From Candidatus Woesearchaeota archaeon (GTDB lineage: Archaea > Nanobdellota > Nanobdellia > SCGC-AAA011-G17 > PNOQ01), in assembly GCA_964481835.1 (NCBI GenBank), contig CAYZTT010000001.1:9964-73963 (forward strand): a stretch of DNA of 64,000 bases. The letters are read 5' to 3'. The position numbers and the translations under genes were made by a program. The notes below the pieces were generated by a model. The model did not search any database and was not told the origin of the DNA. It saw nothing but the letters and a program-made list of their open reading frames with translations. Positions within the stretch are counted from its first letter, which is position 1. Every line of letters starts with the position of its first letter. Shown piece after piece: positions 8,412 to 52,221 of the stretch.

Positions 8412-8645
8412 CTATTGCTGTTCTTTTATTGCTGGTTGCGCTTTTGCCACTTGTTGTTCTTTTTTGAACATTAATGCAAATGGCCTTATTGCAGCCAGTA
8501 TTCCTATTGCTAGGTACCAGTACCACTCTAATGCTAGAAGTCCTGACCACAACTTTGCAACCATTAATATTATTGCTGCGGTGCTTAACTTAATTAGAGA
8601 TATGTCAAACCATTTAAGATTCTTTAACATAGTTTTTATGCACAT
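8412..8645 (-). CDS. Small membrane protein
   Basis: 77 aa with two predicted TM helices, directly upstream of the membrane-anchored regulator. Confidence 0.3.
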   Translation of the reverse strand: MCIKTMLKNLKWFDISLIKLSTAAIILMVAKLWSGLLALEWYWYLAIGILAAIRPFALMFKKEQQVAKAQPAIKEQQ

Positions 8646-8679
8646 CGAATATCACCTCTATTATTCCCTTTATTTGAGG

Positions 8680-9243
8680 TTATTTAAGTTTTACTCTTCT
8701 TCTATAAAAGTCTGCTATAAACATATTCTCCGTAAAAGCTAGTGCAGGTAGGCCGATTAGGACAATACACATAACTACAAAGATTATTGCTAACAGGATG
8801 CTTTTTAAGATGGCAACTATATAATCCCCTAGATCTGTGAACACTGGTTTTAATGCTTTAAATTCGAAATAGGAACTTACTGTCCCTTTTACGAAGAAAT
8901 TTATGGTCAGTATTGGTACTATGAATAATTCCAATAGAACAGTAACAAAGTCTTCTGCACCTTTACCAAAGAGACCAAACCCTTCTGTGATTAAGAAATA
9001 TACTAGTATGAAGGGTATTGCTTTCAGAAACATAAAAAATCCTAGTTTAAAATCAGATTTGAATTGGAAAGTTGGTAATTTTTTGAATTTTCCGTTGGTA
9101 AACTCTTTAATAATTCTAATCCCATAACCACCTAACGGGAACCAACCAATGATCGGTAAAAGTATCCATAGAATATTCCACATTCCTTTTGCTCTGTTAA
9201 AGGGATAGCTGAAAGCTGTCTTGAATCTTAATGTTTTCATCAT
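8680..9243 (-). CDS. Polytopic membrane protein (DUF4013-like)
   Basis: 187 aa with 4-5 hydrophobic helices and a GWFPLGGYG motif. Confidence 0.4.
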   Translation of the reverse strand: MMKTLRFKTAFSYPFNRAKGMWNILWILLPIIGWFPLGGYGIRIIKEFTNGKFKKLPTFQFKSDFKLGFFMFLKAIPFILVYFLITEGFGLFGKGAEDFVTVLLELFIVPILTINFFVKGTVSSYFEFKALKPVFTDLGDYIVAILKSILLAIIFVVMCIVLIGLPALAFTENMFIADFYRRRVKLK

Positions 9244-35250: not shown

Positions 35251-35262
35251 TTAAAATAAATA

Positions 35263-35337
35263 TGGGCCCGATGGGATTTGAACCCACGACCCCCTGGTTA
35301 AGAGCCAGGTGCTACCACCAAACTGAGCTACGGACCC
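35263..35337 (-). tRNA. tRNA-Lys (anticodon CTT)
   Basis: The reverse complement is GGGTCCGTAGCTCAGTTTGGTGGTAGCACCTGGCTCTTAACCAGGGGGTCGTGGGTTCAAATCCCATCGGGCCCA. It folds into a cloverleaf with a 7-bp acceptor stem, a 5-bp anticodon stem with loop CTCTTAA, and a GTTCAAATC T-loop. There is no intron and no encoded CCA. Confidence 0.85.
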
Positions 35338-35377
35338 AATAAGAAAAAGAGCTAAAACTCAATTTAAAAAACTTTTG

Positions 35378-37408: not shown

Positions 37409-37621
37409 TTACTTTTTTTTCTTTTTGACAGCTTTTTTCTTAGTTGTTTTTTTCTTTACAGCCTTCTTTTTGGCTGCTGGCTTTTTCTTAGCGGCTTTTT
37501 TCTTTTTTCCGCCTCTAGCCATTTTAGCCTCACAAACATTACCTTTTCCATCTACATAATAAAGGTAACCTGGCTTTCTTGTAACAACATTTTTAGCAAC
37601 GACCTTCCCCAATAAATTCAC
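37409..37621 (-). CDS. Small basic protein with histone-H1-like Lys/Ala-rich tail (candidate nucleoid-associated protein)
   Basis: 70 aa. The N-terminal 35 aa is beta-rich (VVTRKPGYLYYVDGKGNVCEA). The C-terminus is GGKKKKAAKKKPAAKKKAVKKKTTKKKAVKKKKK. Confidence 0.4.
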   Translation of the reverse strand: MNLLGKVVAKNVVTRKPGYLYYVDGKGNVCEAKMARGGKKKKAAKKKPAAKKKAVKKKTTKKKAVKKKKK

Positions 37622-37689: not shown

Positions 37690-38283
37690 TCAAGTATTTT
37701 CGTCTCTAGCGGATAGTGCTCGAGTCATAGAGTAAACTACTCTCAGAATTAATTCTAAAGCAAAGACGAAGACAAAATAGTAGATTAGGATGTCCAACAG
37801 CGAGGGTACTTGCATAATTAATGACCATGACTGCGTCCAATCAAATGCGGTTATCCCGTCTGTAAGGAAAACTGCCAATAAAGCAAAGGGGACTAGTTTG
37901 GCTATATCTTTGGCTAAATCCTGGTGGTAATATGAAGCAATTCTGATGGCAGCGATCATTGCCATGGAAATCAGCAGTATATTGGAGACTATTGCATCCG
38001 GACTTTGCGCCATGAATATCGCTGCGAATGCTACGAACCATACCATCAAAAATAATGGAAAAAATAGTAAATATTCTAATATATATAGGAGAAGTGCAAA
38101 AAATTTGAATAGGAATGCGTGCTCAACATGGTTATATTGACCCAGGTTTAAATTGAATATATCTCTCGTAGCTACAAATTTATAGAGATTGTATACTATT
38201 ATTGCATATACTGCTAAACCCACTATAAATAAAATTAGGGGCCTTAGAATCTCATATGCTCCCCCTGGAGATAGTTGTATCAT
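37690..38283 (-). CDS. Polytopic membrane protein (hypothetical)
   Basis: 197 aa with 5-6 TM helices. Confidence 0.35.
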   Translation of the reverse strand: MIQLSPGGAYEILRPLILFIVGLAVYAIIVYNLYKFVATRDIFNLNLGQYNHVEHAFLFKFFALLLYILEYLLFFPLFLMVWFVAFAAIFMAQSPDAIVSNILLISMAMIAAIRIASYYHQDLAKDIAKLVPFALLAVFLTDGITAFDWTQSWSLIMQVPSLLDILIYYFVFVFALELILRVVYSMTRALSARDENT

Positions 38284-38420
38284 ATTTTTATATTCTTGTT
38301 AGTAAGTTTATAAAATTTTTGTTGAACTACTTTTAGTCTTTGATAGAATTATTTTATAATAAATATTATTGTATATTCTTAGAACTTTTAGGGACAGTAT
38401 ATTTTGTTATTGCTTAAAGG

Positions 38421-38972
38421 TTATAAACTCAAATAAACTCGTTTTTCATCAAATGGGCCTTTCTCATCTGGACCAATATCCTCATATATTCTTTTTAATT
38501 GATATGCTATCCTATCCGCCAAATTTACTAAGGGATATAGTCTATCTCCGTCCTTTTCTTGTCTGAATCTCCGTCGGGAAAGCTCTGTATGGAACATTTC
38601 CCCCACTAAAGGAACAAGATCTTCTAGAAGGGGGGATCTTTGGTCGCGCCCGTCTATAATTATGGAAGTTCGGGCGATGTCTATCTGGCCAGATAATCCT
38701 TCTATAAGCTGGGCAATAGTTGGCACCCTTCCGCTCATTCGGCCTATCTTTCTAAAATGCTCTTCGCCCAGAACCATGAACCTAAAATCCTGTGGCCCAG
38801 AAAGGGTTGTGGCGATATCTACTTGTTTTCTTTGTTTTCCAAGCATTTCTTGTGCTTTTCTTACATCTCTTGGGTTTGTAGAAAGTGTGGCAACATATAT
38901 CTCTGGGATTGCCCCATGGTTCGATTCATCTATCCCTATCCAATACCCTATATTTGTTGCTATGGAAGTCAC
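38421..38972 (-). CDS. Hypothetical protein with RNase-H-like N-terminal signature (GIDESNHG), GC-elevated
   Basis: WIGIDESNHGAIPEIYV resembles the RNase HII GIDEAGRG start. A second acidic cluster IIIDGRDQ is present. It sits directly downstream of the tyrosine recombinase. Confidence 0.3.
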   Translation of the reverse strand: MTSIATNIGYWIGIDESNHGAIPEIYVATLSTNPRDVRKAQEMLGKQRKQVDIATTLSGPQDFRFMVLGEEHFRKIGRMSGRVPTIAQLIEGLSGQIDIARTSIIIDGRDQRSPLLEDLVPLVGEMFHTELSRRRFRQEKDGDRLYPLVNLADRIAYQLKRIYEDIGPDEKGPFDEKRVYLSL

Positions 38973-39027
38973 CCCTTCAAGTAATTGGTGTTAGGAGAAA
39001 TTTATAAGCATTTATTGATTAGAACTG

Positions 39028-39873
39028 TTATTCTTCAATATCGTCAAGGACATTTCTCACTTTTTTTAGTTGCTCTTTTGATACATGCGTGTAAATTTGA
39101 GTAGTAGACAGATCCGAATGGCCAAGTAACTCCTGAATTATTCGTATATCTACTCCTGCATCTAGATTGTGGGTGGCAAAGGAGTGCCTTAGTTTGTGTG
39201 CAGTCACCTTTTTGCTTATTTTTGCCAATTTTGCGGTATTTGATATTATTTTTTGAACATTTCTTGCCGAAAGGTGATCTTTTTTCCCAGGAAAGAGATA
39301 TTGTTCTCTTTCGTCTATTGTTTGTATATATTTCTTAATTTCATGTGTTAGTTTCTCTGATAAGAAAAATGCCCTATCTTTTCCGCCTTTTCCAGATCTG
39401 ACCCACCCCATGCCATTTTCTAATTCAATATCCATGATCTTTAGGTTTACACATTCACTCACCCTCAACCCAGTGGAGTATAGTAGTCTCATAATCAATA
39501 GGGATTTTTTTGAAGGAGCTCTTTCAAACAATCTCCTTACTTCTTCTTTTGTTAGGAATATCGGTATTGACTTGGGGATTTTTGGAGTTTTTAGATTTAC
39601 TATACTCATCCCCATAACTTCATGGAAAAAGAACTTTAATGCCGCCTTCTTTACTGCGATGGATCTGGGAGCATGATCTGAGTCGGAAACTAAATATGCA
39701 AAATATTCTTTGATATCTTCTTCAAGAATTTGGGGAGGATGCCTATCTTCAGGAAGATTCTTATTTACATGATTTAGAAAAAGTTTGACATTTTGGACAT
39801 ATGATTCTCTTGTTCTTTGAGAGAACCCCCTTAATTTCATTTCAGTAACTAGCCTTTTTAGACAAATCCCCAT
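39028..39873 (-). CDS. Tyrosine site-specific recombinase (XerA/XerC/D-like integrase)
   Basis: N-terminal SAM-like core-binding domain. The catalytic residues are R (GLRVSE), K, HxxR (HKLRHSFAT), R and Y (LGHSDLSTTQIYTHV). 281 aa. Confidence 0.85.
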   Translation of the reverse strand: MGICLKRLVTEMKLRGFSQRTRESYVQNVKLFLNHVNKNLPEDRHPPQILEEDIKEYFAYLVSDSDHAPRSIAVKKAALKFFFHEVMGMSIVNLKTPKIPKSIPIFLTKEEVRRLFERAPSKKSLLIMRLLYSTGLRVSECVNLKIMDIELENGMGWVRSGKGGKDRAFFLSEKLTHEIKKYIQTIDEREQYLFPGKKDHLSARNVQKIISNTAKLAKISKKVTAHKLRHSFATHNLDAGVDIRIIQELLGHSDLSTTQIYTHVSKEQLKKVRNVLDDIEE

Positions 39874-40015
39874 GAAAATCCCTCTTTTTAGAGTATTTTT
39901 AGGATAAATGGTATATAAAAGTTCGCATAAGGTATGTTAGGCGAATTAGTGTTCTATTTTGCCTTCTTGAGGAGTAAATAATACTCTATTCAGAGAAATT
40001 TAAAAATCTACCGAA

Positions 40016-40396
40016 TTATGCAAGCTCTTCCAAAAGTGCTTGATATTCCCGGGACCTTCTTAAGGCATCTTTCTTTTTGCCTTTCCGTGTAAGAATGTAA
40101 ATTGCTCCTTCGCCTTCTTCCATCCTTCTTTCTACTGCGAAGGAAGTTGCACTAAACCCAGTTATATCTGTCAAATTCTCTGGGAGTTCATATCCTGAAT
40201 GGGACCTGAATGGACCTGAACGGCAAGTTAAATCTATTATCCTAAGTTCTCTGTCAAAGTACAATTCATACCCTTTGCTAGTATTAACTACATGAATCAC
40301 ATCTCCATCTCTCTCAGGAACGCTTGCAAATAAGGACTCTATAGTCCTTACTAGATTAGAGGAAAAATCGTGTGGGATGAATATTGGGGCTTTCAT
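40016..40396 (-). CDS. Hypothetical protein (GC-elevated block)
   Basis: 126 aa with no motif. Same strand and compositional block as the recombinase. Confidence 0.3.
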   Translation of the reverse strand: MKAPIFIPHDFSSNLVRTIESLFASVPERDGDVIHVVNTSKGYELYFDRELRIIDLTCRSGPFRSHSGYELPENLTDITGFSATSFAVERRMEEGEGAIYILTRKGKKKDALRRSREYQALLEELA

Positions 40397-40433
40397 TTTG
40401 AATTATTTATCTTTTAATTTTTGCTAAAAGGTT

Positions 40434-40769
40434 TTAAACATGCAAATAGAGTCCCTGATGCCTTCCTTCTTGACGCTTCTCTACGAGAAAATAGTCTGGA
40501 TCTGGGCCTATAAATTCATAAAATCTCCGGGGCATTTCGCTCCCAGATAATGAAGTGAAGGGACCTAGTTCCTTTAAATCTCCGAGTTCCTTTAACTCTT
40601 GTACCTTTGAAGGTTTTCTTCCGAGAGGATATAGTAAAAATTCTCCGTCTTTTGTTTGGGCTACACCCACTGCAATCGCGTTCTCAAAGGTTGCCAGAGT
40701 TAGCTCTATTGATCTCCTTAGCCTTTGCCATCTTGGCACTCTCACTGATGTAGGTTGTTTTTGTTTCAT
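40434..40769 (-). CDS. Hypothetical protein (GC-elevated block)
   Basis: 111 aa, basic N-terminus, no motif. Confidence 0.3.
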   Translation of the reverse strand: MKQKQPTSVRVPRWQRLRRSIELTLATFENAIAVGVAQTKDGEFLLYPLGRKPSKVQELKELGDLKELGPFTSLSGSEMPRRFYEFIGPDPDYFLVEKRQEGRHQGLYLHV

Positions 40770-40812
40770 TTTTTAATTGCGGAGGTTTGTAGAAAATTAG
40801 CTATTTATAAAA

Positions 40813-41115
40813 CTATCTCTCTTTTCTCTCTGGCCTTTTCAGGGGTTCTGCCTTTACGGCTTTGGGGTTTAATCCTAAAATTATATCCACTAGTTCTGCT
40901 ACTTTTCCTGTTTCTTGGGGATCTTGTGTAGCTACAACCCCTACTTTTCTTTTTAATATACCTTCTGCTGCGAGATAGCTCTCGACCCACTTCGTAAGTC
41001 CTTCTTCCCCGTCTTTGAAGGTTGAAAGATTTGCATGGTTGAATCCCCCGTATGCATCTAGAGACAATAAATATTGGCCATTTACCATATTGTATCCTGC
41101 GGATAATAGTTTCAT
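40813..41115 (-). CDS. Hypothetical protein (GC-elevated block)
   Basis: 100 aa, no motif. Confidence 0.3.
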   Translation of the reverse strand: MKLLSAGYNMVNGQYLLSLDAYGGFNHANLSTFKDGEEGLTKWVESYLAAEGILKRKVGVVATQDPQETGKVAELVDIILGLNPKAVKAEPLKRPERKER

Positions 41116-41212
41116 TTTTCTTAATATCTCCTATAAAATAAGGACCGCCAGGCCCTTTTTAAATGTATCTATTTGTAGCTATTGTATAGTGACAAAAGAT
41201 TTAAAGAAAATA

Positions 41213-41440
41213 TTACATATGTTTTTTCATATATTCATACCAAATGGCAACTAGGAATGGTACAAATGCAATTAGAATCCAATTTATTTTATGATACCAA
41301 GCCCCAAATACAACTAAAACAAATGTTATTAAGAATAATGCCAATGTTAAAGAATCAAAGCTTTTGTTCACTGTTTGGGCAGGCTTTTTAATTTTCCTTT
41401 TAGTTGACTTCTTTTTTGTAACCTTCTTTTTCTTGGGCAT
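41213..41440 (-). CDS. Small membrane protein with Lys-rich N-terminus
   Basis: MPKKKKVTKKKSTKRKIKKP followed by two TM helices. Confidence 0.35.
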   Translation of the reverse strand: MPKKKKVTKKKSTKRKIKKPAQTVNKSFDSLTLALFLITFVLVVFGAWYHKINWILIAFVPFLVAIWYEYMKKHM

Positions 41441-41540
41441 TAAATATCACCTATTAATTAATTTTTGAAATTTTAAGTATATAAATCTTATGTTTGAAAA
41501 GCAAAAAGTTTAATAACTAGTTTAGTTAAAAAGTTAAATA

Positions 41541-42185
41541 ATGGTTTTTAGATTGTTCAAAAAAAGACGCGATGTGGAAGAGAAACTGTCTGGTTTGCAC
41601 GATAGTCTGAATGATTCTTTTTCTAAAATTAAGGATGATATGGGGAGTGTTGGGGAGTGGATTAAACACTTCGATCAAACTAAAGAAACTCACCATAGTA
41701 AAATAGAGAATTTAGATACCCGATTGAGATCTGTTGAAGAATTCGTTATGAACCTTATAGAACAGTCTCCCGTCGAGGAAATGTCCAAACAGCTGTCCAA
41801 ACAAGGACAAACAGCTGTCCGTCCGAATCAAACGGATAGTGTGTCCAAACAGATGTTTGAACAGCCGTCCAAACAGCAAAAAGTTGTCCAAACGGATCTA
41901 GAGAGGGCATTAATTAGTTTGACAGCAATGGAAAGGGCATTAGTGTGGAGCCTTTTGAATACAGACATTCTATTAAGTTATGAGGATATGGGTAGGATTT
42001 TAGGCAAAGACCAATCTACAGTGAGAGGACAAATAAATAATATAAAAAGGAAGATTCCTGGGCTAATAGAGGAGAAAAGTGAGGACACAGGAAAGAAGAG
42101 ATACTATGTAAATGAGGGAAAGAAGAGGGATATATGGGTAAAATATACGGGTAAACGGGCAAAAAAGGTCGAAAGTGAGAGCTAA
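41541..42185 (+). CDS. Coiled-coil protein with internal SKQ repeats and C-terminal sigma-70-region-4/HTH_10-like DNA-binding domain
   Basis: N-terminal heptad-like region, (x-S-K-Q) x4 encoded by gtccaaacag repeats, then LTAMERALVWSLLN...LSYEDMGRILGKDQSTVRGQINNIKRKI. Confidence 0.45.
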   Translation: MVFRLFKKRRDVEEKLSGLHDSLNDSFSKIKDDMGSVGEWIKHFDQTKETHHSKIENLDTRLRSVEEFVMNLIEQSPVEEMSKQLSKQGQTAVRPNQTDSVSKQMFEQPSKQQKVVQTDLERALISLTAMERALVWSLLNTDILLSYEDMGRILGKDQSTVRGQINNIKRKIPGLIEEKSEDTGKKRYYVNEGKKRDIWVKYTGKRAKKVESES

Positions 42186-42260
42186 TTTTGAGTAATATTG
42201 ATTAATTTGGGGTATTTTAAGGAATAAATCAGGGCATTTATGTTAAAAGTGAGAGTAGAA

Positions 42261-43058
42261 TCAGATATAATGACGCAAATGGCCAGTTAACCGTGTTTGT
42301 GAGTGATCCTTCTCTCTGAGAGCTAGAAGATTTTCTAGCATTTTGAGCGTTCTAAACTCTTTTTTTATGGTTAAGTATACCTTTCTATTGGGAGATACAT
42401 TCTTTGTGAGAGGTATTTTCCTTAAAACAAGGTCGCTTATGTAATCTCTAACTGCACTTTGAGATATTAGGAGATCTTTTGCCAGATCAGCATATGTTAT
42501 GGGGGCCTTAAGTTCTTCTTCTAATCGATAGATGGCCATAAAAACCCTGAATTGTGCCTCTGTAAGGCTCAGAAACCTCGATTCTAGGTCCTCTTTAAGG
42601 GTTTGAACGTCATAATAATCTTTTAATCCTTCTGTCGGAGCAGTGTCTGTCTGTCGTCTTTCTGTCGGCAGGTTGTCGGCAGGTTGTCGGCGCAGGACCC
42701 CTTCATTTCCTATGGAACTTTCTTGGATTTTCGGCTTAGGAGGCTCAAAACCATTAAATTTGGGGGTTTTAGGGTTTTTGGGGGTTTTTGTCTCTGGTTC
42801 AGGCACTCTTTGCATGTGTAGAGATTGCTCTAACAAGACCTTAATCTCCTTTATTTCACTCTCAAGCCCTGAAATGCGCAAATCTAGCTCAGAAATAGAT
42901 TCTTTTACCTTTTGAAAGGACAATCTTACTTTACTTTGAAAATCCAATTTAACCCCAATGTAGAAATCTGTGTCGAATTTATAACAATTTATGTGTCGGA
43001 GCAGTGTCGTCTGTGTGTCGAAAGTGTGTCGAAGTGAGAGTATTCTTGTATTAGGCAC
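42261..43058 (-). CDS. Paralogous coiled-coil / low-complexity linker / HTH_10-like protein (non-ATG start likely)
   Basis: Same architecture as 41541-42185: coiled coil (ISELDLRISGLESEIKEIKVLLEQ), P/K/T-rich linker, and C-terminal LSLTEAQFRVFMAIY...ITYADLAKDLLISQSAVRDYISDLVLRKI. The ORF begins with GTG. It is convergent with its paralog. Confidence 0.4.
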   Translation of the reverse strand: MPNTRILSLRHTFDTQTTLLRHINCYKFDTDFYIGVKLDFQSKVRLSFQKVKESISELDLRISGLESEIKEIKVLLEQSLHMQRVPEPETKTPKNPKTPKFNGFEPPKPKIQESSIGNEGVLRRQPADNLPTERRQTDTAPTEGLKDYYDVQTLKEDLESRFLSLTEAQFRVFMAIYRLEEELKAPITYADLAKDLLISQSAVRDYISDLVLRKIPLTKNVSPNRKVYLTIKKEFRTLKMLENLLALREKDHSQTRLTGHLRHYI

Positions 43059-43100
43059 TATACGGAGTTATAGGTATTTTGTGAGAATACGCCTTGAGAA

Positions 43101-43640
43101 CTATAAATTCTGGGGTTTGACTTGGTTATTGTAGATATCGATGAATGAGGTGTGGTGGAGGTTTATCCCCGCAGATATAAAGGATTCTGCAATACCTTTT
43201 ATCAGTTCTTTTTCATTGAGATTCTCTGCATTGAATCTAAGGAGATTTGTGAGAGTGAGTGTACATAGGAACCCTTCATTTAGCTCTAGGCAAACACTTC
43301 TATTCCCTTCTTTTACCGTCGAGGATTCTAGATCGATATTAATGTTTCCCTTGGTGAGATTCCTTTCTTGTTTAGAAAATCCCCATGGCAAGAGCTCGTT
43401 AATGATGGCTTCTTCCATTGTCGAAGCCACTGTCTGTTTGTCGGCAATGCCCAAATTTATTACTTTTCCAAGGTATTTTGTAGACTTTTGTCGAGATTGT
43501 TTTTTCTTTTTGTTATATCTATTTTCTACAAGATATGCATATTCTTTTCCGTTGATAACTTTCTTCCTTATGAACATATTATTATTGTACAAACATAATT
43601 TATAAGAATTACCCATATACTGAAAACCTATCTGACTCAC
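43101..43640 (-). CDS. Hypothetical protein with basic N-terminal segment (FIRKKVINGKEYAYLVENRYNKKKKQSRQKSTKYLGKV)
   Basis: 179 aa with no assignable family. Its start overlaps the 3' end of the JAMM gene by ~30 nt. Confidence 0.3.
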   Translation of the reverse strand: MSQIGFQYMGNSYKLCLYNNNMFIRKKVINGKEYAYLVENRYNKKKKQSRQKSTKYLGKVINLGIADKQTVASTMEEAIINELLPWGFSKQERNLTKGNINIDLESSTVKEGNRSVCLELNEGFLCTLTLTNLLRFNAENLNEKELIKGIAESFISAGINLHHTSFIDIYNNQVKPQNL

Positions 43641-44130
43641 ACATTATTATCATTAGAGAATGGGGGTTTTTCTCCTTGCTAGAATTGAGTGTTATAAGAT
43701 CTTGCTGGGAGGCTATACATCTTCTAAAGGGGTGAGAATGTAATAAAATTATTGTGTCTTCTGAACAAGTCTTAAAGGTCACATGGTTAAAAGTTTGTTC
43801 AGTTATATCTGGTTGATATACTTCATTTATCGTATAGTCTCTACTTATCTCCCCTTTCAAACAAACCACCATCTCTACAGAGAGATCTTTGTTATAATAC
43901 TCTTGCAAATCATTATATGTGTCTTCTGTGAACATTATTGAGAATTCTTCAAGGACTATTGTTTTATTCTCTGCTAATTTTGATTCAGATATGCTCTCTA
44001 GTATGGGAAATATTGGATACCCCAATAATATGTACGAGGTAATCAAAAATAATAAGGCTATGGCTATAAACATTATAATAATTTTCCTCCATATGGAATC
44101 CCTTTCTTCTATTTGATTTTCTTCAATCAT
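43609..44130 (-). CDS. Membrane-anchored JAMM/MPN+ (JAB) metalloprotease-domain protein
   Basis: N-terminal TM helix (IIIMFIAIALLFLITSYILLGY). The C-terminal domain has the exact JAMM signature H-x-H-x7-S-x2-D (LLHSHPFRRCIASQQDL), with an upstream conserved Glu candidate (KGEISRD). Confidence 0.55.
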   Translation of the reverse strand: MIEENQIEERDSIWRKIIIMFIAIALLFLITSYILLGYPIFPILESISESKLAENKTIVLEEFSIMFTEDTYNDLQEYYNKDLSVEMVVCLKGEISRDYTINEVYQPDITEQTFNHVTFKTCSEDTIILLHSHPFRRCIASQQDLITLNSSKEKNPHSLMIIMCESDRFSVYG

Positions 44131-45020
44131 GCATGTAGATGTAGATGTAATTGTTTTGTTATTTTTCTAATGTGTTTCTTCCGGATATAGTGTAGTACTA
44201 TCCCTGCAAGTATAAGAATTGTTCCCCCCAGTAATATTCTAAAATCCAGGGTTTCATTTATGAACATTATTGCGAAGGCTATTGATGCGATAGGGGTTAC
44301 TAAGAGACTTATTATTGAAATTGTATCTGCATGTAATCTCTTTGCGCTATATCCAATTAACAAGAATGGAAGTGCGGTGCATAATACCCCCAATACGATT
44401 AAGAGAGGTATGTGGGGCAATATATTATTTCCTAGACCAAATATGAATACAAAGGGGACATAAAATAGTGTTGCAAAGAAAAAGAACCACATGATGGACC
44501 CTATTGAGTGTGTTTTCTCTTCAGATCTAAGGAAAACTAATAATAGTGCATAAAATAATGCGTTACCAAGAGATATCATATTCCCTATAAAAAATCCACT
44601 TTTGAAATTGAATGGATTTATGACAGATAACCCAATCAATGCTACAATAATTGCTAATTTTTGGTTGAACTTTAATTTTTCCTTTAGGAAAAAGAATGCA
44701 AAGATAGTTACAAAGACTACAGAAAAGGAGGAAATTAATATTACATTTGAAACTGGTGCATATGAAAGCGCATATATGAATGACCCTAAAGCTAATGCCT
44801 TTAACATTCCAATTGATATATAATTTGGCAGATCTTTTCTTTTTACTCTATATGCTTTTTTATCTAACATGGGCATTAAAATTGCTAGAAAGATAGATGC
44901 AAATAATAACCTAAAGAAAGTGATTGCCACAGGGTTTATGTCTGGCACAAGAACTTTAGTTATTACACCTACAAATCCTACCAGGATCCCTGCAAGGATT
45001 ATATTGAACTTGGATTTCAT
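44127..45020 (-). CDS. EamA/DMT-superfamily transporter (10 TM)
   Basis: Two EamA-like repeats. Start trimmed to MKSKFNIILAGILVGF to avoid overlap with the divergent nth-like gene. Confidence 0.65.
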   Translation of the reverse strand: MKSKFNIILAGILVGFVGVITKVLVPDINPVAITFFRLLFASIFLAILMPMLDKKAYRVKRKDLPNYISIGMLKALALGSFIYALSYAPVSNVILISSFSVVFVTIFAFFFLKEKLKFNQKLAIIVALIGLSVINPFNFKSGFFIGNMISLGNALFYALLLVFLRSEEKTHSIGSIMWFFFFATLFYVPFVFIFGLGNNILPHIPLLIVLGVLCTALPFLLIGYSAKRLHADTISIISLLVTPIASIAFAIMFINETLDFRILLGGTILILAGIVLHYIRKKHIRKITKQLHLHLHA

Positions 45021-45069
45021 TATTAGCTTTAGGGTTAAGTTTTTAAAAATGTTTGCCCAAACTAATTGT

Positions 45070-45678
45070 ATGAATAAAAAGAAAGCTGTGCAGCAATTGG
45101 GTGAATTGAGAAAGAATACTAAAAATATGCGATTGACTGCAGAAAAATGGGATAGGCCATGGAAAACTCTGATTGCCATATTGTTGTCTGCTAGGACCCG
45201 TGATGAAATGACTATCCCTGTAGCTAGAGAGTTGTTTAAGAGATATTCTAGTTTGAATAAACTCAGTAATGCAAAATTAAGGGATGTTGAGAAAATAATC
45301 AGACCGATAAATTTTTACAAAAATAAATCCAAAAATGTTTTAGGTTGCTCAAAAATGTTATTGGAGACCCATGGGGGAAAGGTCCCTAAGAATTTTGAGG
45401 AGTTGTTACATTTGCCTGGTGTTGGTAGGAAGACTGCCAATGTATTTTTGTCTGAATATGGAGGTGCAGCAATCGGTGTGGACACACACGTGTTTTACAT
45501 TTCCAAGAAACTGAGTTGGAGTAATGGAAAAACCCCTGAGAAGGTAGAGGGCGACCTTAAGAGATTGTTTCCTAAGAACTACTGGACCAAGGTAAACCCA
45601 GTATTGGTAAGATTCGGAAAAACGTATACAAGTAGAAAGGTGAAAGATAAATTGCTTCTTAAGATTAAAAATTTATGA
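45070..45678 (+). CDS. nth: HhH-GPD DNA glycosylase, endonuclease III-like, lacking the C-terminal Fe-S loop
   Basis: Helix-hairpin-helix LPGVGRKTANVFL with the catalytic Lys, and VDTHV with the catalytic Asp. There is no C-terminal Cys cluster. The start is uncertain (45049 or 45070). Confidence 0.7.
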   Translation: MNKKKAVQQLGELRKNTKNMRLTAEKWDRPWKTLIAILLSARTRDEMTIPVARELFKRYSSLNKLSNAKLRDVEKIIRPINFYKNKSKNVLGCSKMLLETHGGKVPKNFEELLHLPGVGRKTANVFLSEYGGAAIGVDTHVFYISKKLSWSNGKTPEKVEGDLKRLFPKNYWTKVNPVLVRFGKTYTSRKVKDKLLLKIKNL

Positions 45679-50540: not shown

Positions 50541-51003
50541 ATCAATATAATAAGAGTTTTTATTTATAAGGTTTTTTATGGCTGAATAAATCGGGGACTC
50601 CCACCCCTATTTCTATTGGAATTATTGTATTTATGGATGTGATGGGTATTTCATATGGAATTATTTTTTAAGGTATTTTTTGTATGGGGTTTTACGTGTG
50701 TTTAAGTGTATTTTTATTGATTTTTAGTAAAAATTTTTATGTTTCAAATTTATGGTTTAGAAGTCTTGAAAGTGAAGAATTTGATTATATATTATATATT
50801 ATATTTATAAGTTTTATTATTATATATATATTATATTATTATATATATATTTTATAGTGTTACTATTGAAAAGTTTCTATAGGAAGAAGGGGTGTACCCA
50901 TCTGCAAACATGAATCAAGAAAGTTCCATTGGAAATATAGGTCCGTGTCTCTATTTTTTAGTATAGCAATATTTATAATCATAATTTATCAGTCGTTTTT
51001 AAG
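50541..51003. other. Predicted chromosomal replication origin (oriC) with ORB-like repeats and AT-rich unwinding element
   Basis: A 460-bp non-coding region sits immediately upstream of orc1/cdc6. It holds three copies of a (t)tcyatTGGAAt core: 50611-50624 tttctattggaatt, 50651-50663 ttcatatggaatt, and the palindromic 50923-50936 gttccattggaaat. A (ta)n-type AT tract lies at ~50784-50858, and a G-string ggggactcccacccc at 50594-50608. Confidence 0.6.
50971..50978 (+). promoter_or_regulatory. TATA-box-like element for orc1/cdc6 (leaderless spacing)
   Basis: atttataa lies ~26 nt upstream of the ATG at 51004. Confidence 0.3.
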
Positions 51004-52221
51004 ATGACTAAATCAGATATTAATGAATTTTTTGAAGATTATTTGAGTAAGGACGGGTTATTTAGGGATAAGAAAGTATTGCAATCTAGTTACACTCCAG
51101 ATAACATACCTCACAGGGATGCAGAGATAAAAGAAATTGCGAGTATGATGGCGCCTGCACTTAGGGGAGAAAAACCTTCTAATTTATTTTTATATGGGAA
51201 AACTGGGACTGGGAAGACTCTTTCTGTATTGCATGTTGTTGAAAAGTTAAGGAAAATTGCTAAGCAAAAGAATATTAATATGATTATACACACTTTAAAT
51301 TGTAAATTAAAAAAAGTTGCAGATACTGAATATAGGTTGATTTCTAACTTGGCTAGACATTTTGGAGAAGATGTACCTGTTACGGGGTTGGCAACTGATG
51401 AAATCTATAAAAGATTTATAGATAGTATAGATAGTATAGATAATAAAAACCAAAATATAATTTTAGTATTGGATGAAATAGATCAATTAGTTAAAAAAGC
51501 AGGAGATGAGATATTATATAATTTAACAAGGTTAAATTCTGAGCTGAAAAATACACAAATTACATTTGTAGGAATTTCTAATGATTTAAGATTTGCAAAT
51601 GATTTGGATCCAAGGGTAAAATCTTCATTAACTGAAGAAGATATTAATTTCCCATCTTACAATGCACTCCAGTTACAAGACATTTTGAATGAACGAGCAA
51701 AAAATGCATTCAAAGAAGGAAGAATAGAACAAGGCGCAATAGAAAAGTGTGCTGCATTAGCGGCTAGGGAGCATGGAGATGCTAGGAGGGCATTAGATTT
51801 ACTTAGGGTTGCTGGAGAACTCTCTGAGAGGAAAGGATCGGACAAATTATTGATAAATCATATTGATGAAGCAGAAGATAAAATCGAGAGAGACTTAGTT
51901 TCAGATGTAGTGAGTACCTTACCAAAACAATCGCAATTAGTTCTTTTAGCGGCTTTTAGATTATATGGGAAGGATAATTCTAAAATATTTACTGGAGATG
52001 TATATGATTTGTATAAAACTTTATCTTCAAATGTAGGCTTAAAACCATTAACACAGAGAAGGATGTCTGATTTGATTGCAGAATTGGATATGTTGGGAAT
52101 AATAAATGCCAAAGTAATTAGCAAAGGCAGGTATGGTAGGACAAGAGAAATTAGTATGTCCATCCCAGATACAGAGGTTCCAGAATTGATGGGTGCATTA
52201 ACAAAATGGCTGAATCTGTAA
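51004..52221 (+). CDS. cdc6: Orc1/Cdc6 replication initiator
   Basis: AAA+ Walker A YGKTGTGKT, Walker B VLDEID, a C-terminal winged-helix domain, 405 aa. Confidence 0.9.
   Translation: MTKSDINEFFEDYLSKDGLFRDKKVLQSSYTPDNIPHRDAEIKEIASMMAPALRGEKPSNLFLYGKTGTGKTLSVLHVVEKLRKIAKQKNINMIIHTLNCKLKKVADTEYRLISNLARHFGEDVPVTGLATDEIYKRFIDSIDSIDNKNQNIILVLDEIDQLVKKAGDEILYNLTRLNSELKNTQITFVGISNDLRFANDLDPRVKSSLTEEDINFPSYNALQLQDILNERAKNAFKEGRIEQGAIEKCAALAAREHGDARRALDLLRVAGELSERKGSDKLLINHIDEAEDKIERDLVSDVVSTLPKQSQLVLLAAFRLYGKDNSKIFTGDVYDLYKTLSSNVGLKPLTQRRMSDLIAELDMLGIINAKVISKGRYGRTREISMSIPDTEVPELMGALTKWLNL

Follow-up and report, generated by a model that had tools for sequence, protein, structure and literature searches.

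Does a recombinase gene among orphan genes mark a mobile element? The question is raised by a block of ten genes at positions 38421-44130 of a 64-kb stretch of DNA, hereafter the window, from Candidatus Woesearchaeota (a DPANN archaeon). The initial annotation took the block for an integrated plasmid, a provirus remnant or a defence island. We arrive at a different reading, which we consider quite probable: the region is a vertically inherited neighbourhood around a module, and not an integrated element. The module consists of the recombinase gene xerA and, at 39920-39947, the putative cognate dif site of XerA. The identity of the site and the vertical inheritance of its surroundings are judged here jointly.

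The ten genes are numbered g1 to g10 along the window. The product of g2 had been described as a recombinase, and this was borne out; it is a tyrosine recombinase, with matches to the Phage_integrase and SAM-like N-terminal domains. Against NF040815 (recomb_XerA_Arch, the NCBIfam equivalog for archaeal XerA), it scores 256 bits over residues 8-272, and the curated cutoff is 220 bits. The best PDB matches are XerA of P. abyssi (4a8e, E 2e-53) and XerA of T. acidophilum (5hxy). The catalytic set, defined as R-K-H-R-[H/W]-Y (PMC5357621), is found as R137, K162 or K165, H226, R229, H252 and Y261. By these matches g2 is archaeal XerA, the chromosome-dimer-resolution recombinase, the dimer-resolving role being assigned by homology. 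Given this score, the XerA structures as closest matches and a dif-like site 46 bp upstream, the statement that none of the ten genes is housekeeping was wrong. No paper naming XerA together with DPANN was found in the literature searched.

The dif-like site lies in the non-coding DNA upstream of the xerA start codon. It reads AGTTCGCATAA-GGTATG-TTAGGCGAATT, with two 11-bp arms (complementary at 9/11 positions) and a 6-bp spacer. Compared with E. coli dif, 20/28 positions match, including inner arm positions of the GCATAA/TTATG type. The same architecture, 28 bp with imperfect inverted 11-bp arms and a 6-bp spacer, has been published for archaeal dif (PMC2958812), and xerA and dif have been reported as one module in some archaea (PMC2958812, PMC5357621). 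The site is single in the window, where the runner-up matches at 15/22 arm positions. Directly adjoining the site, towards xerA, is a TATA-like sequence, TTTATATA, a candidate promoter 38 nt ahead of the ATG of this gene. Between g1 and xerA (38974-39001) there is a weak dif-like sequence with 15/22 arm positions. A score of 15/22 is reached by 8 strand-specific matches, at ~4 positions, in the 64-kb window. As a second dif site this sequence was rejected; it has no counterpart in L086 or L018 despite their shared xerA-g1 arrangement, and its likeness to dif is probably due to chance.

The L-numbers used here and below are labels of related loci and contigs that were compared with the window. 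Relatives were collected by scanning XerA against one genome per GTDB species, and 25 window proteins were then compared with the loci by tblastn. Closer metagenome contigs were reached through homologs of g1, g5 and g8, together with a metagenome scan. The closest relatives among GTDB species are metagenome-assembled genomes of Candidatus Woesearchaeota, with XerA identity of 78% downward. In more than 15 Woesearchaeota loci, xerA and a dif-like site occur in the same neighbourhood, and the xerA orthologs found there share 40-81% identity. One copy of the site, ~50-85 bp upstream of xerA, is found in each of L006-L011, L018, L022, L086, L090, L094 and L120-L127. Each related locus (up to 21 kb) has one dif-like site. 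In the distant relatives L012, L015, L016, L017 and L023, the best site is 0.7-3 kb from xerA or downstream of it. The conserved Woesearchaeota dif consensus is AGTTCGCMTAA-N6-TTAKGCGAAnT.

By analogy with known systems, XerA would recombine at the dif-like site. If Pyrococcus and Thermoplasma XerA are a guide, two XerA monomers would bind the two 11-bp arms of dif. Cleavage would be at the edges of the 6-bp spacer, via Tyr261, and would serve to resolve chromosome dimers. Since dif abuts the TATA-like box of xerA, bound XerA may also repress its own promoter (autoregulation).

What, then, of the genes around the module? The ten consecutive open reading frames (ORFs) reported earlier all exist at the positions given, and an independent gene call on the source contig (96.9 kb, a metagenome scaffold in ENA) recovers them. 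The features are as follows.

38421-38972, minus strand: g1, 183 aa.
39028-39873, minus strand: g2 (xerA), 281 aa.
39912-39919, minus strand: TATA-box-like TTTATATA, read from the sequence.
39920-39947, no strand assigned: dif-like site, 28 bp, in the arrangement 11-6-11.
39948-39998, no strand assigned: micro-slot beside dif, non-coding in the window.
39999-40026, minus strand: possible degenerate dif-like half-site, overlapping the g3 stop codon.
40016-40396, minus strand: g3, 126 aa.
40434-40769, minus strand: g4, 111 aa.
40813-41115, minus strand: g5, 100 aa.
41213-41440, minus strand: g6, 75 aa.
41541-42185, plus strand: g7, 214 aa.
42261-43058, minus strand: g8, 265 aa.
43101-43640, minus strand: g9, 179 aa.
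43609-44130, minus strand: g10, 173 aa.
44127-44130, minus strand: 4-bp overlap (ATGA) in which EamA stops and g10 starts.

Most of these genes hold their place. xerA, g6, g7, g8 and g10 are collinear between a block on the PAC2 side and a block on the h134/argS/lonB side in L007, L008, L009, L011, L018, L022, L086, L094 and L120-L126. In closer relatives g9 is added to this conserved backbone. The synteny of 6-7/10 genes spans XerA identities from 81% to ~63%, and extends partly down to 42%. Synteny and universal presence of all ten genes had been named as the outcome that would speak against an island. We find it for ~6-7/10 of them; g1 and g3-g5 vary, independently of each other, and the block is not present or absent as a unit. 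Under the proposed explanation, g6-g10 would be clade-specific core genes, with g10 and g9 translationally coupled to the upstream gene for an EamA transporter. The variable parts are g1, which is gained, lost or moved, and a slot on the far side of dif.

The ends of the block were also considered. At the right end, placed at ~44130 by the initial annotation, the stop codon of EamA and the start codon of g10 share 4 bp (ATGA, 44127-44130). The same overlap is seen in the gene calls of L086 (4619-4622) and L094 (2329-2332). Because this overlap is conserved, the proposed right boundary lies within an operon, and a boundary at this position was not borne out. Direct repeats had been suggested for the two ends, and none rose above shuffled controls. 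The longest word common to 38250-38450 and 44050-44250 is 10 nt, a length equalled by 17% of shuffles. No repeat family links the ends of the block, and none beyond shuffled expectation was seen around the g3-g5 slot or g1. There is no tRNA next to the block; the only one (Lys-CTT, 35262-35338) is 3 kb off. Integration at a tRNA was ruled out, since conserved genes separate the Lys-CTT tRNA from the block.

The first half of the block had been called compositionally distinct, and this is marginally the case. Total GC of g1, g3, g4 and g5 is 0.405-0.426 (z +1.2 to +1.7), values that other genes of the window also reach. A mild rise in GC is seen in g8 as well. xerA has average GC. None of the ten genes departs from the host in third-position GC or synonymous codon usage, which lie within 1-2 standard deviations of the window mean.

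The search of virus and plasmid databases that had been proposed gave no relevant match beyond generic integrase similarity. Among PHROGs, proteins of the block matched only integrase families (g2) and, weakly, one sigma factor (g7). Scans of IMG/VR with g1, g3, g4 and g5 found no relatives. By blastn there was no DNA match to phages, and one to plasmids, a 115-bp match to xerC. An anti-phage defence island was rejected, there being no match to a PADLOC model above threshold; the sub-threshold matches were g7 (CARF-linked, E 0.002) and g10 (JAB, E 0.0014). Searching IMG/VR with the dif pattern gave 23 matches, and none of the contigs encodes a relative of any other protein of the window or slot. 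These 23 viral contigs (L097-L119) carry perfect palindromes of the form TTCGCATAA-N6-TTATGCGAA. In about a dozen of them a distant tyrosine recombinase (22-28% identity to XerA) lies 0.3-5 kb from the palindrome. They are probably recombinase/site modules of bacterial phages, unrelated to the dif of the window.

Accessory content, which had been proposed for the whole block, is confined to two parts of it. The first is g1, which is patchily distributed. Homologs stand beside xerA in L086 (72%), L018 (35%), L121 (36%) and L016/L143 (26%). The gene is absent from L006, L007, L120, L122 and a 377-kb contig of the nearest relative. In L011 it is displaced, and the match is split over two frames (8629-8703 and 8703-9158, region 8629-9224). 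The longest g1 ORF of L011 lacks the N-terminal DESNH motif, which suggests that this copy is a frameshifted pseudogene. Only 2 clusters of the family were found among 5.8 billion proteins. Alignment shows conserved IDESNH, IDG and NxADxxAY motifs. These motifs are all that speaks for the earlier description of g1 as RNase-H-like, which we could not confirm; there is no Pfam or PDB sequence match of substance, and an AlphaFold2 model built from a 3-sequence alignment has a mean confidence (pLDDT) of 37.5 and is unusable. We describe g1 as a xerA-linked protein with a DESNH motif that is gained, lost or moved among relatives.

The second variable part is the slot between dif and g6 (39948-41212), which in the window holds g3-g5 and differs by lineage. 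The description of g3, g4 and g5 as orphans was upheld, since Pfam, NCBIfam and PHROGs gave no family match for any of them. Two of the three, g3 and g4, are paralogs (pairwise E = 6e-7). Orthologs of g3 occur in L090 (95%), L094 (84%), L120 (77%) and L086 (55%). Those of g4, the fastest-evolving gene of the set, occur in L090 and L094 (72% in both) and L120 (70%). Those of g5 occur in L094 (95%), L090 (90%), L120 (54%) and L121 (35%), and a weak relative is found in the slot of L009. All three genes occur together only in the nearest lineages, L094, L090 and L120; L086 has g3 alone. No credible further homolog of g3 was found among 1.8 billion representatives, two extra matches being short stretches in proteins of >1000 aa. 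For g5 only its own clusters were recovered, and exhaustive searches gave no relatives of g3-g5 outside the clade.

Substitution rates were compared with those of L094. The ratio of nonsynonymous to synonymous substitution (dN/dS) is 0.04-0.17 for xerA and g3-g10, with values of 0.11 for g3, 0.17 for g4 and 0.11 for g5. Synonymous divergence (dS) of g3-g5 is 0.28-0.98, which overlaps the 0.61-1.34 of neighbouring core genes. Given this overlap, g3-g5 have diverged along with the chromosome since the lineages split. To judge from these comparisons, g3-g5 are genuine genes under purifying selection, and the ancestor from which the nearest four lineages descend already had them.

Across relatives, the interval from dif to g6 ranges from ~40 bp in L007, through ~1.3 kb in the window, to ~1.6 kb in L018. 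Its cargo is unrelated from lineage to lineage: orphan ORFs, small membrane proteins, a GNAT acetyltransferase (L086), a HAD-like hydrolase with a deaminase (L122) and a HATPase_c_2 protein (L010). Turnover is sharpest next to dif. In the window the gap between g3 and dif is ~50 bp and has no ORF. Homology with L090 breaks at 39947/39996, where 304 bp with a 90-aa membrane ORF are inserted. Homology with L094 breaks at 39973/39996, where there are 327 bp with a 108-aa ORF unrelated to that of L090. L120 has a 123-aa ORF between g3 and dif. Towards dif, homology picks up again precisely at the outer edge of the site; towards g3, it breaks ~3 bp from the sequence 39999-40026. The outer, chromosome-side arm of this sequence, AGCTTGCATAA, matches a dif arm at 9-10/11 positions, and its inner arm is degenerate. 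Half-sites with at least 9/11 matches number 25 per 64 kb, or ~1 per 2.6 kb. This one is conserved in L090 and L094, but lies inside the coding end of g3.

Inversions are seen at the same place. In L007 (3164-4062, against 38421-39947 of the window), the xerA-dif unit lies in the opposite orientation between the same conserved flanks. In L011 (8629-10816), xerA-dif forms part of an inverted and rearranged segment that also includes g1 and the Lys-rich gene. The two cases show that rearrangements concentrate at this locus.

How should these observations be read? That the whole of 38421-44130 is an integrated plasmid, provirus or defence island, carrying g2 as its own integrase and ending at ~38300-38420 and ~44130, we regard as highly improbable. 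Such an element would account for a tyrosine recombinase beside several orphan genes, for the mildly raised GC of g1, g3, g4, g5 and g8, and for the lack of g1 and g3-g5 in many relatives. It is refuted, as a description of the 5.7-kb block, by the match of g2 to the XerA equivalog with a conserved dif site, the synteny of 6-7/10 genes, a right end inside an operon, the overlap of slot-gene and flanking-gene dS, host-like codon usage, and the lack of attachment-site (att) repeats, an adjacent tRNA, or virus, plasmid or defence homologs. Nothing positive was found to speak for a mobile origin of g3-g5 alone. The island is largely an artefact, in which XerA was taken for the integrase of a mobile element and clade-specific core genes were taken for foreign ones. 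A second possibility, improbable though less so, is that the 28-bp palindrome has a purely regulatory role, as an operator or promoter element for xerA autoregulation or as the site of another regulator, and that the true dif lies elsewhere. The palindrome does abut the TATA-like box 38 nt from the xerA ATG, it moves with xerA where xerA is inverted (L007, L011), and in Thermococcales dif is not adjacent to xerA (PMC2958812). However, a promoter-only role does not fit the five distant relatives (L012, L015, L016, L017 and L023) in which the site is far from xerA or downstream of it. A recombination site is also favoured by the exact 11-6-11 geometry and by the resemblance to E. coli dif. Moreover, xerA/dif modules are reported in some archaea, and xerS and difSL are adjacent in streptococci (PMC5357621, PMC2958812). 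Operator and dif roles are in any case compatible with each other.

The more serious alternative concerns the slot (g3-g5 and 39948-39998), which may have been built by XerA-mediated integration of small circles at dif, much as in integrative mobile elements exploiting Xer (IMEX) or integrons, with the newest arrival next to dif and g3-g5, as older arrivals, at a greater distance. Four lineages that share g5-g4-g3 have four different states between the g3 stop codon and dif (no ORF, or one of 90, 108 or 123 aa). The homology breaks fall at the outer edge of dif and ~3 bp from a half-site with a 9-10/11 arm, the slots of distant relatives carry unrelated cargo (GNAT, HAD, deaminase, HATPase and orphans), and most slot ORFs are co-oriented with xerA. 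Of the two sites that bacterial IMEX typically leave, one is good and the other is a hybrid in which an arm is degenerate, and the layout of breaks and half-site is what a Xer-integrated element would leave (PMC5357621). On the other hand, no second dif-like site of at least 16/22 flanks any slot among ~30 loci, and there are no dif-like or attC-like repeats between g3, g4 and g5, where gaps are just 37-43 bp. Within a limited sampling, no cassette recurred in an unrelated lineage or turned up on another replicon. The dif pattern of the window matches only unrelated palindromes in IMG/VR. Conservation of the half-site may reflect coding constraint, and a gene end and dif bracketing free spacer would give the same homology breaks. 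We keep XerA capture as a minority view because the half-site lies in the g3 coding end and is of a kind common by chance, because there is no second dif, and because no cassette recurs. Its fullest form is unlikely too: xerA-dif would be a cassette-capture platform, with single genes inserted or replaced at the outer border of dif, and, the module being ~11 kb from a probable origin, the resolution of dimers would no longer be tied to the terminus. As the default cause of the turnover we infer ordinary gene gain and loss beside a recombinogenic site. Several observations sit less easily with the vertically inherited xerA/dif neighbourhood that we favour. Plain gain and loss predicts neither that sister lineages should differ so sharply in just the interval from the g3 end to dif, nor the xerA-dif inversions in L007 and L011; both hint at site-specific events. 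The genes g1, g3, g4 and g5 are orphans of few lineages, compatible with an older foreign origin, and their GC is 4-6 points above the window mean. The copy number of xerA and dif is seen only within 64 kb of the genome, and 39920-39947 is a predicted dif site.

The conserved genes beyond the slot deserve separate description. g6, confirmed by its sequence as a Lys-rich single-pass membrane peptide, is syntenic in L007-L011, L018, L022, L086, L090, L094 and L120-L126, and bounds the variable slot on its far, conserved side. A further Lys-rich small protein (70 aa, 37409-37621) has a KKKAAKKK-type tail, so that with g6 such proteins flank the xerA region. Its gene stands beside xerA in nearly all relatives, including the distant L014, L015 and L129-L135; its product, small and basic, may bind DNA or be ribosomal-like. 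g7, syntenic at 43-95% identity, encodes a coiled coil and a C-terminal helix-turn-helix (HTH) joined by an SKQ-rich repeat linker, and has weak matches to sigma-70 region 4 and HTH families. The view of g7 and g8 as HTH paralogs with repeats held up, in that they are weak paralogs in the HTH region (E = 4e-4) and g7 contains five copies of a 17-nt repeat (41786-41893).

The g8 family has 18 homolog clusters, most of 221-228 aa; where an organism is named, it is Candidatus Woesearchaeota. The real start of g8 is probably at 42947, giving 228 aa. In an AlphaFold2 model, a long N-terminal helix (coiled coil) precedes a C-terminal winged helix at pLDDT 85-92, and the best Foldseek matches are MepR and MarR. 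Thus, g8 is predicted to be a MarR-like winged-helix DNA-binding protein. It is syntenic in relatives.

g9, described as a basic orphan, is indeed a basic protein of ~171-179 aa with no family match in Pfam, NCBIfam or PHROGs. It overlaps the end of g10, and is found at 61-89% in L007, L018, L086, L094 and L120-L124. The description of g10 as a membrane JAMM protein also agrees with its sequence, which has an N-terminal membrane helix and, spanning residues 131-144, HSHPFRRCIASQQD, an exact match to the JAMM motif HxHx7Sx2D. The stretch before the motif includes Glu residues, for example those of VEMVVCLKGE. There is no match to a Pfam JAB family and only the weak PADLOC match to JAB. We consider g10, which is syntenic at 44-82% identity, a candidate membrane-anchored JAMM/MPN+ metalloprotease on the evidence of this motif. 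The neighbouring EamA ORF, as called, is 350 aa (44127-45179) and overlaps the start of the opposite-strand gene nth (44869-45678) by ~310 bp. The true EamA start is probably internal, near 45020, because EamA of relatives is 295-297 aa. Gene calls of the source contig (L001) have no EamA and instead have two 67-aa ORFs on the other strand.

A candidate replication origin lies nearby. An AT-rich stretch (50541-51003, GC ~0.26) is directly upstream of a Cdc6/Orc1-type ORF (51004-52221), which is followed by genes for PolD subunits. It contains motifs like origin recognition boxes (ORB), namely TTCTATTGGAAT at 50611, TTCATATGGAAT at 50650 and GTTCCATTGGAAAT at 50923, which flank an (AT)n-rich stretch at ~50780-50860. 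A motif of the TTCCAnnGGAAA type is found upstream of cdc6 also in L007, L008, L009, L011, L016, L022 and L023. The distance from cdc6 to dif, ~11 kb, is conserved; a dif this near an origin would be unusual among published archaeal cases (PMC5357621). The word TTCCATAGGAAA at 42706-42717, within g8, has the form of the ORB-like motif by cdc6; at this point the protein has the invariant peptide SSIGNEGV. Similar words occur within the g8 match of L007, L008, L009, L011, L016 and L022, and conservation here is likely due to coding constraint.

The case bears on how such loci are annotated. A tyrosine recombinase accompanied by orphan genes in a DPANN genome should be checked for XerA, dif and synteny before it is called an integrated element. 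Here, that check turns a mobile island into a core chromosome-maintenance locus, and yields a conserved dif consensus and a xerA/dif module for Woesearchaeota. Two aspects stand out: the position beside dif turns over among sister lineages while its surroundings are stable, and dif is close to a probable origin. If XerA were to drive the turnover, this would be the first archaeal example of Xer-exploiting gene capture. A capture platform at this locus, if real, would amount to an archaeal counterpart of IMEX arrays or integrons that works with a single recombinase.

Comparison with known systems places the module. The IMEX (CTX, TLC and VGJ phages, and the gonococcal genetic island) resemble the locus in having variable DNA beside dif, the dif here being predicted, and possibly in a hybrid site on the far side, of which one arm is good and the other degenerate. 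Conversely, the window has no convincing second dif, no phage or conjugation genes, no signs of excision and no copy of the same cassette elsewhere, and its cargo is one small ORF per event. Among the loci compared, a limited sample, no slot ORF is common to non-sister lineages. The locus is not demonstrably an IMEX. With integrons it shares a site immediately upstream of the recombinase gene, followed by a row of small, mostly orphan ORFs in which the position nearest the site is the most variable; the match to TIGR02249 (integron integrase) is 215 bits. However, this is below the IntI cutoff of 265 bits, there are no attC-like repeats between the ORFs, and the ORFs of the window point towards the recombinase gene and not away from it. 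The score and the lack of attC-like repeats rule out an integron. XerS/difSL of streptococci and lactococci is similar in that a single Xer gene lies directly beside its own site and is inherited with it as a module (PMC2958812, PMC5357621). That system is bacterial, has an atypical 31-bp site, depends on FtsK and is placed at the terminus; XerA of the window is distant from it, with 92 bits against the XerS equivalog NF003462 (cutoff 267).

The closest counterpart is the archaeal XerA/dif system, represented by P. abyssi (4a8e) and T. acidophilum (5hxy). Shared features are a single recombinase with a SAM-like N-terminal domain and the R-K-H-R-H-Y set, and a chromosomal 28-bp site, 11-6-11 and like bacterial dif, that is conserved across the lineage (PMC2958812). 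The arrangement differs in two respects. dif is 46 bp upstream of xerA here, whereas the two are apart in Thermococcales (PMC2958812). The module is ~11 kb from the candidate cdc6-linked origin, whereas dif is 122-144 degrees from oriC in the archaea analysed (PMC5357621). Judged by its sequence-level features, all of which agree among those examined, the module belongs to the archaeal XerA/dif kind.

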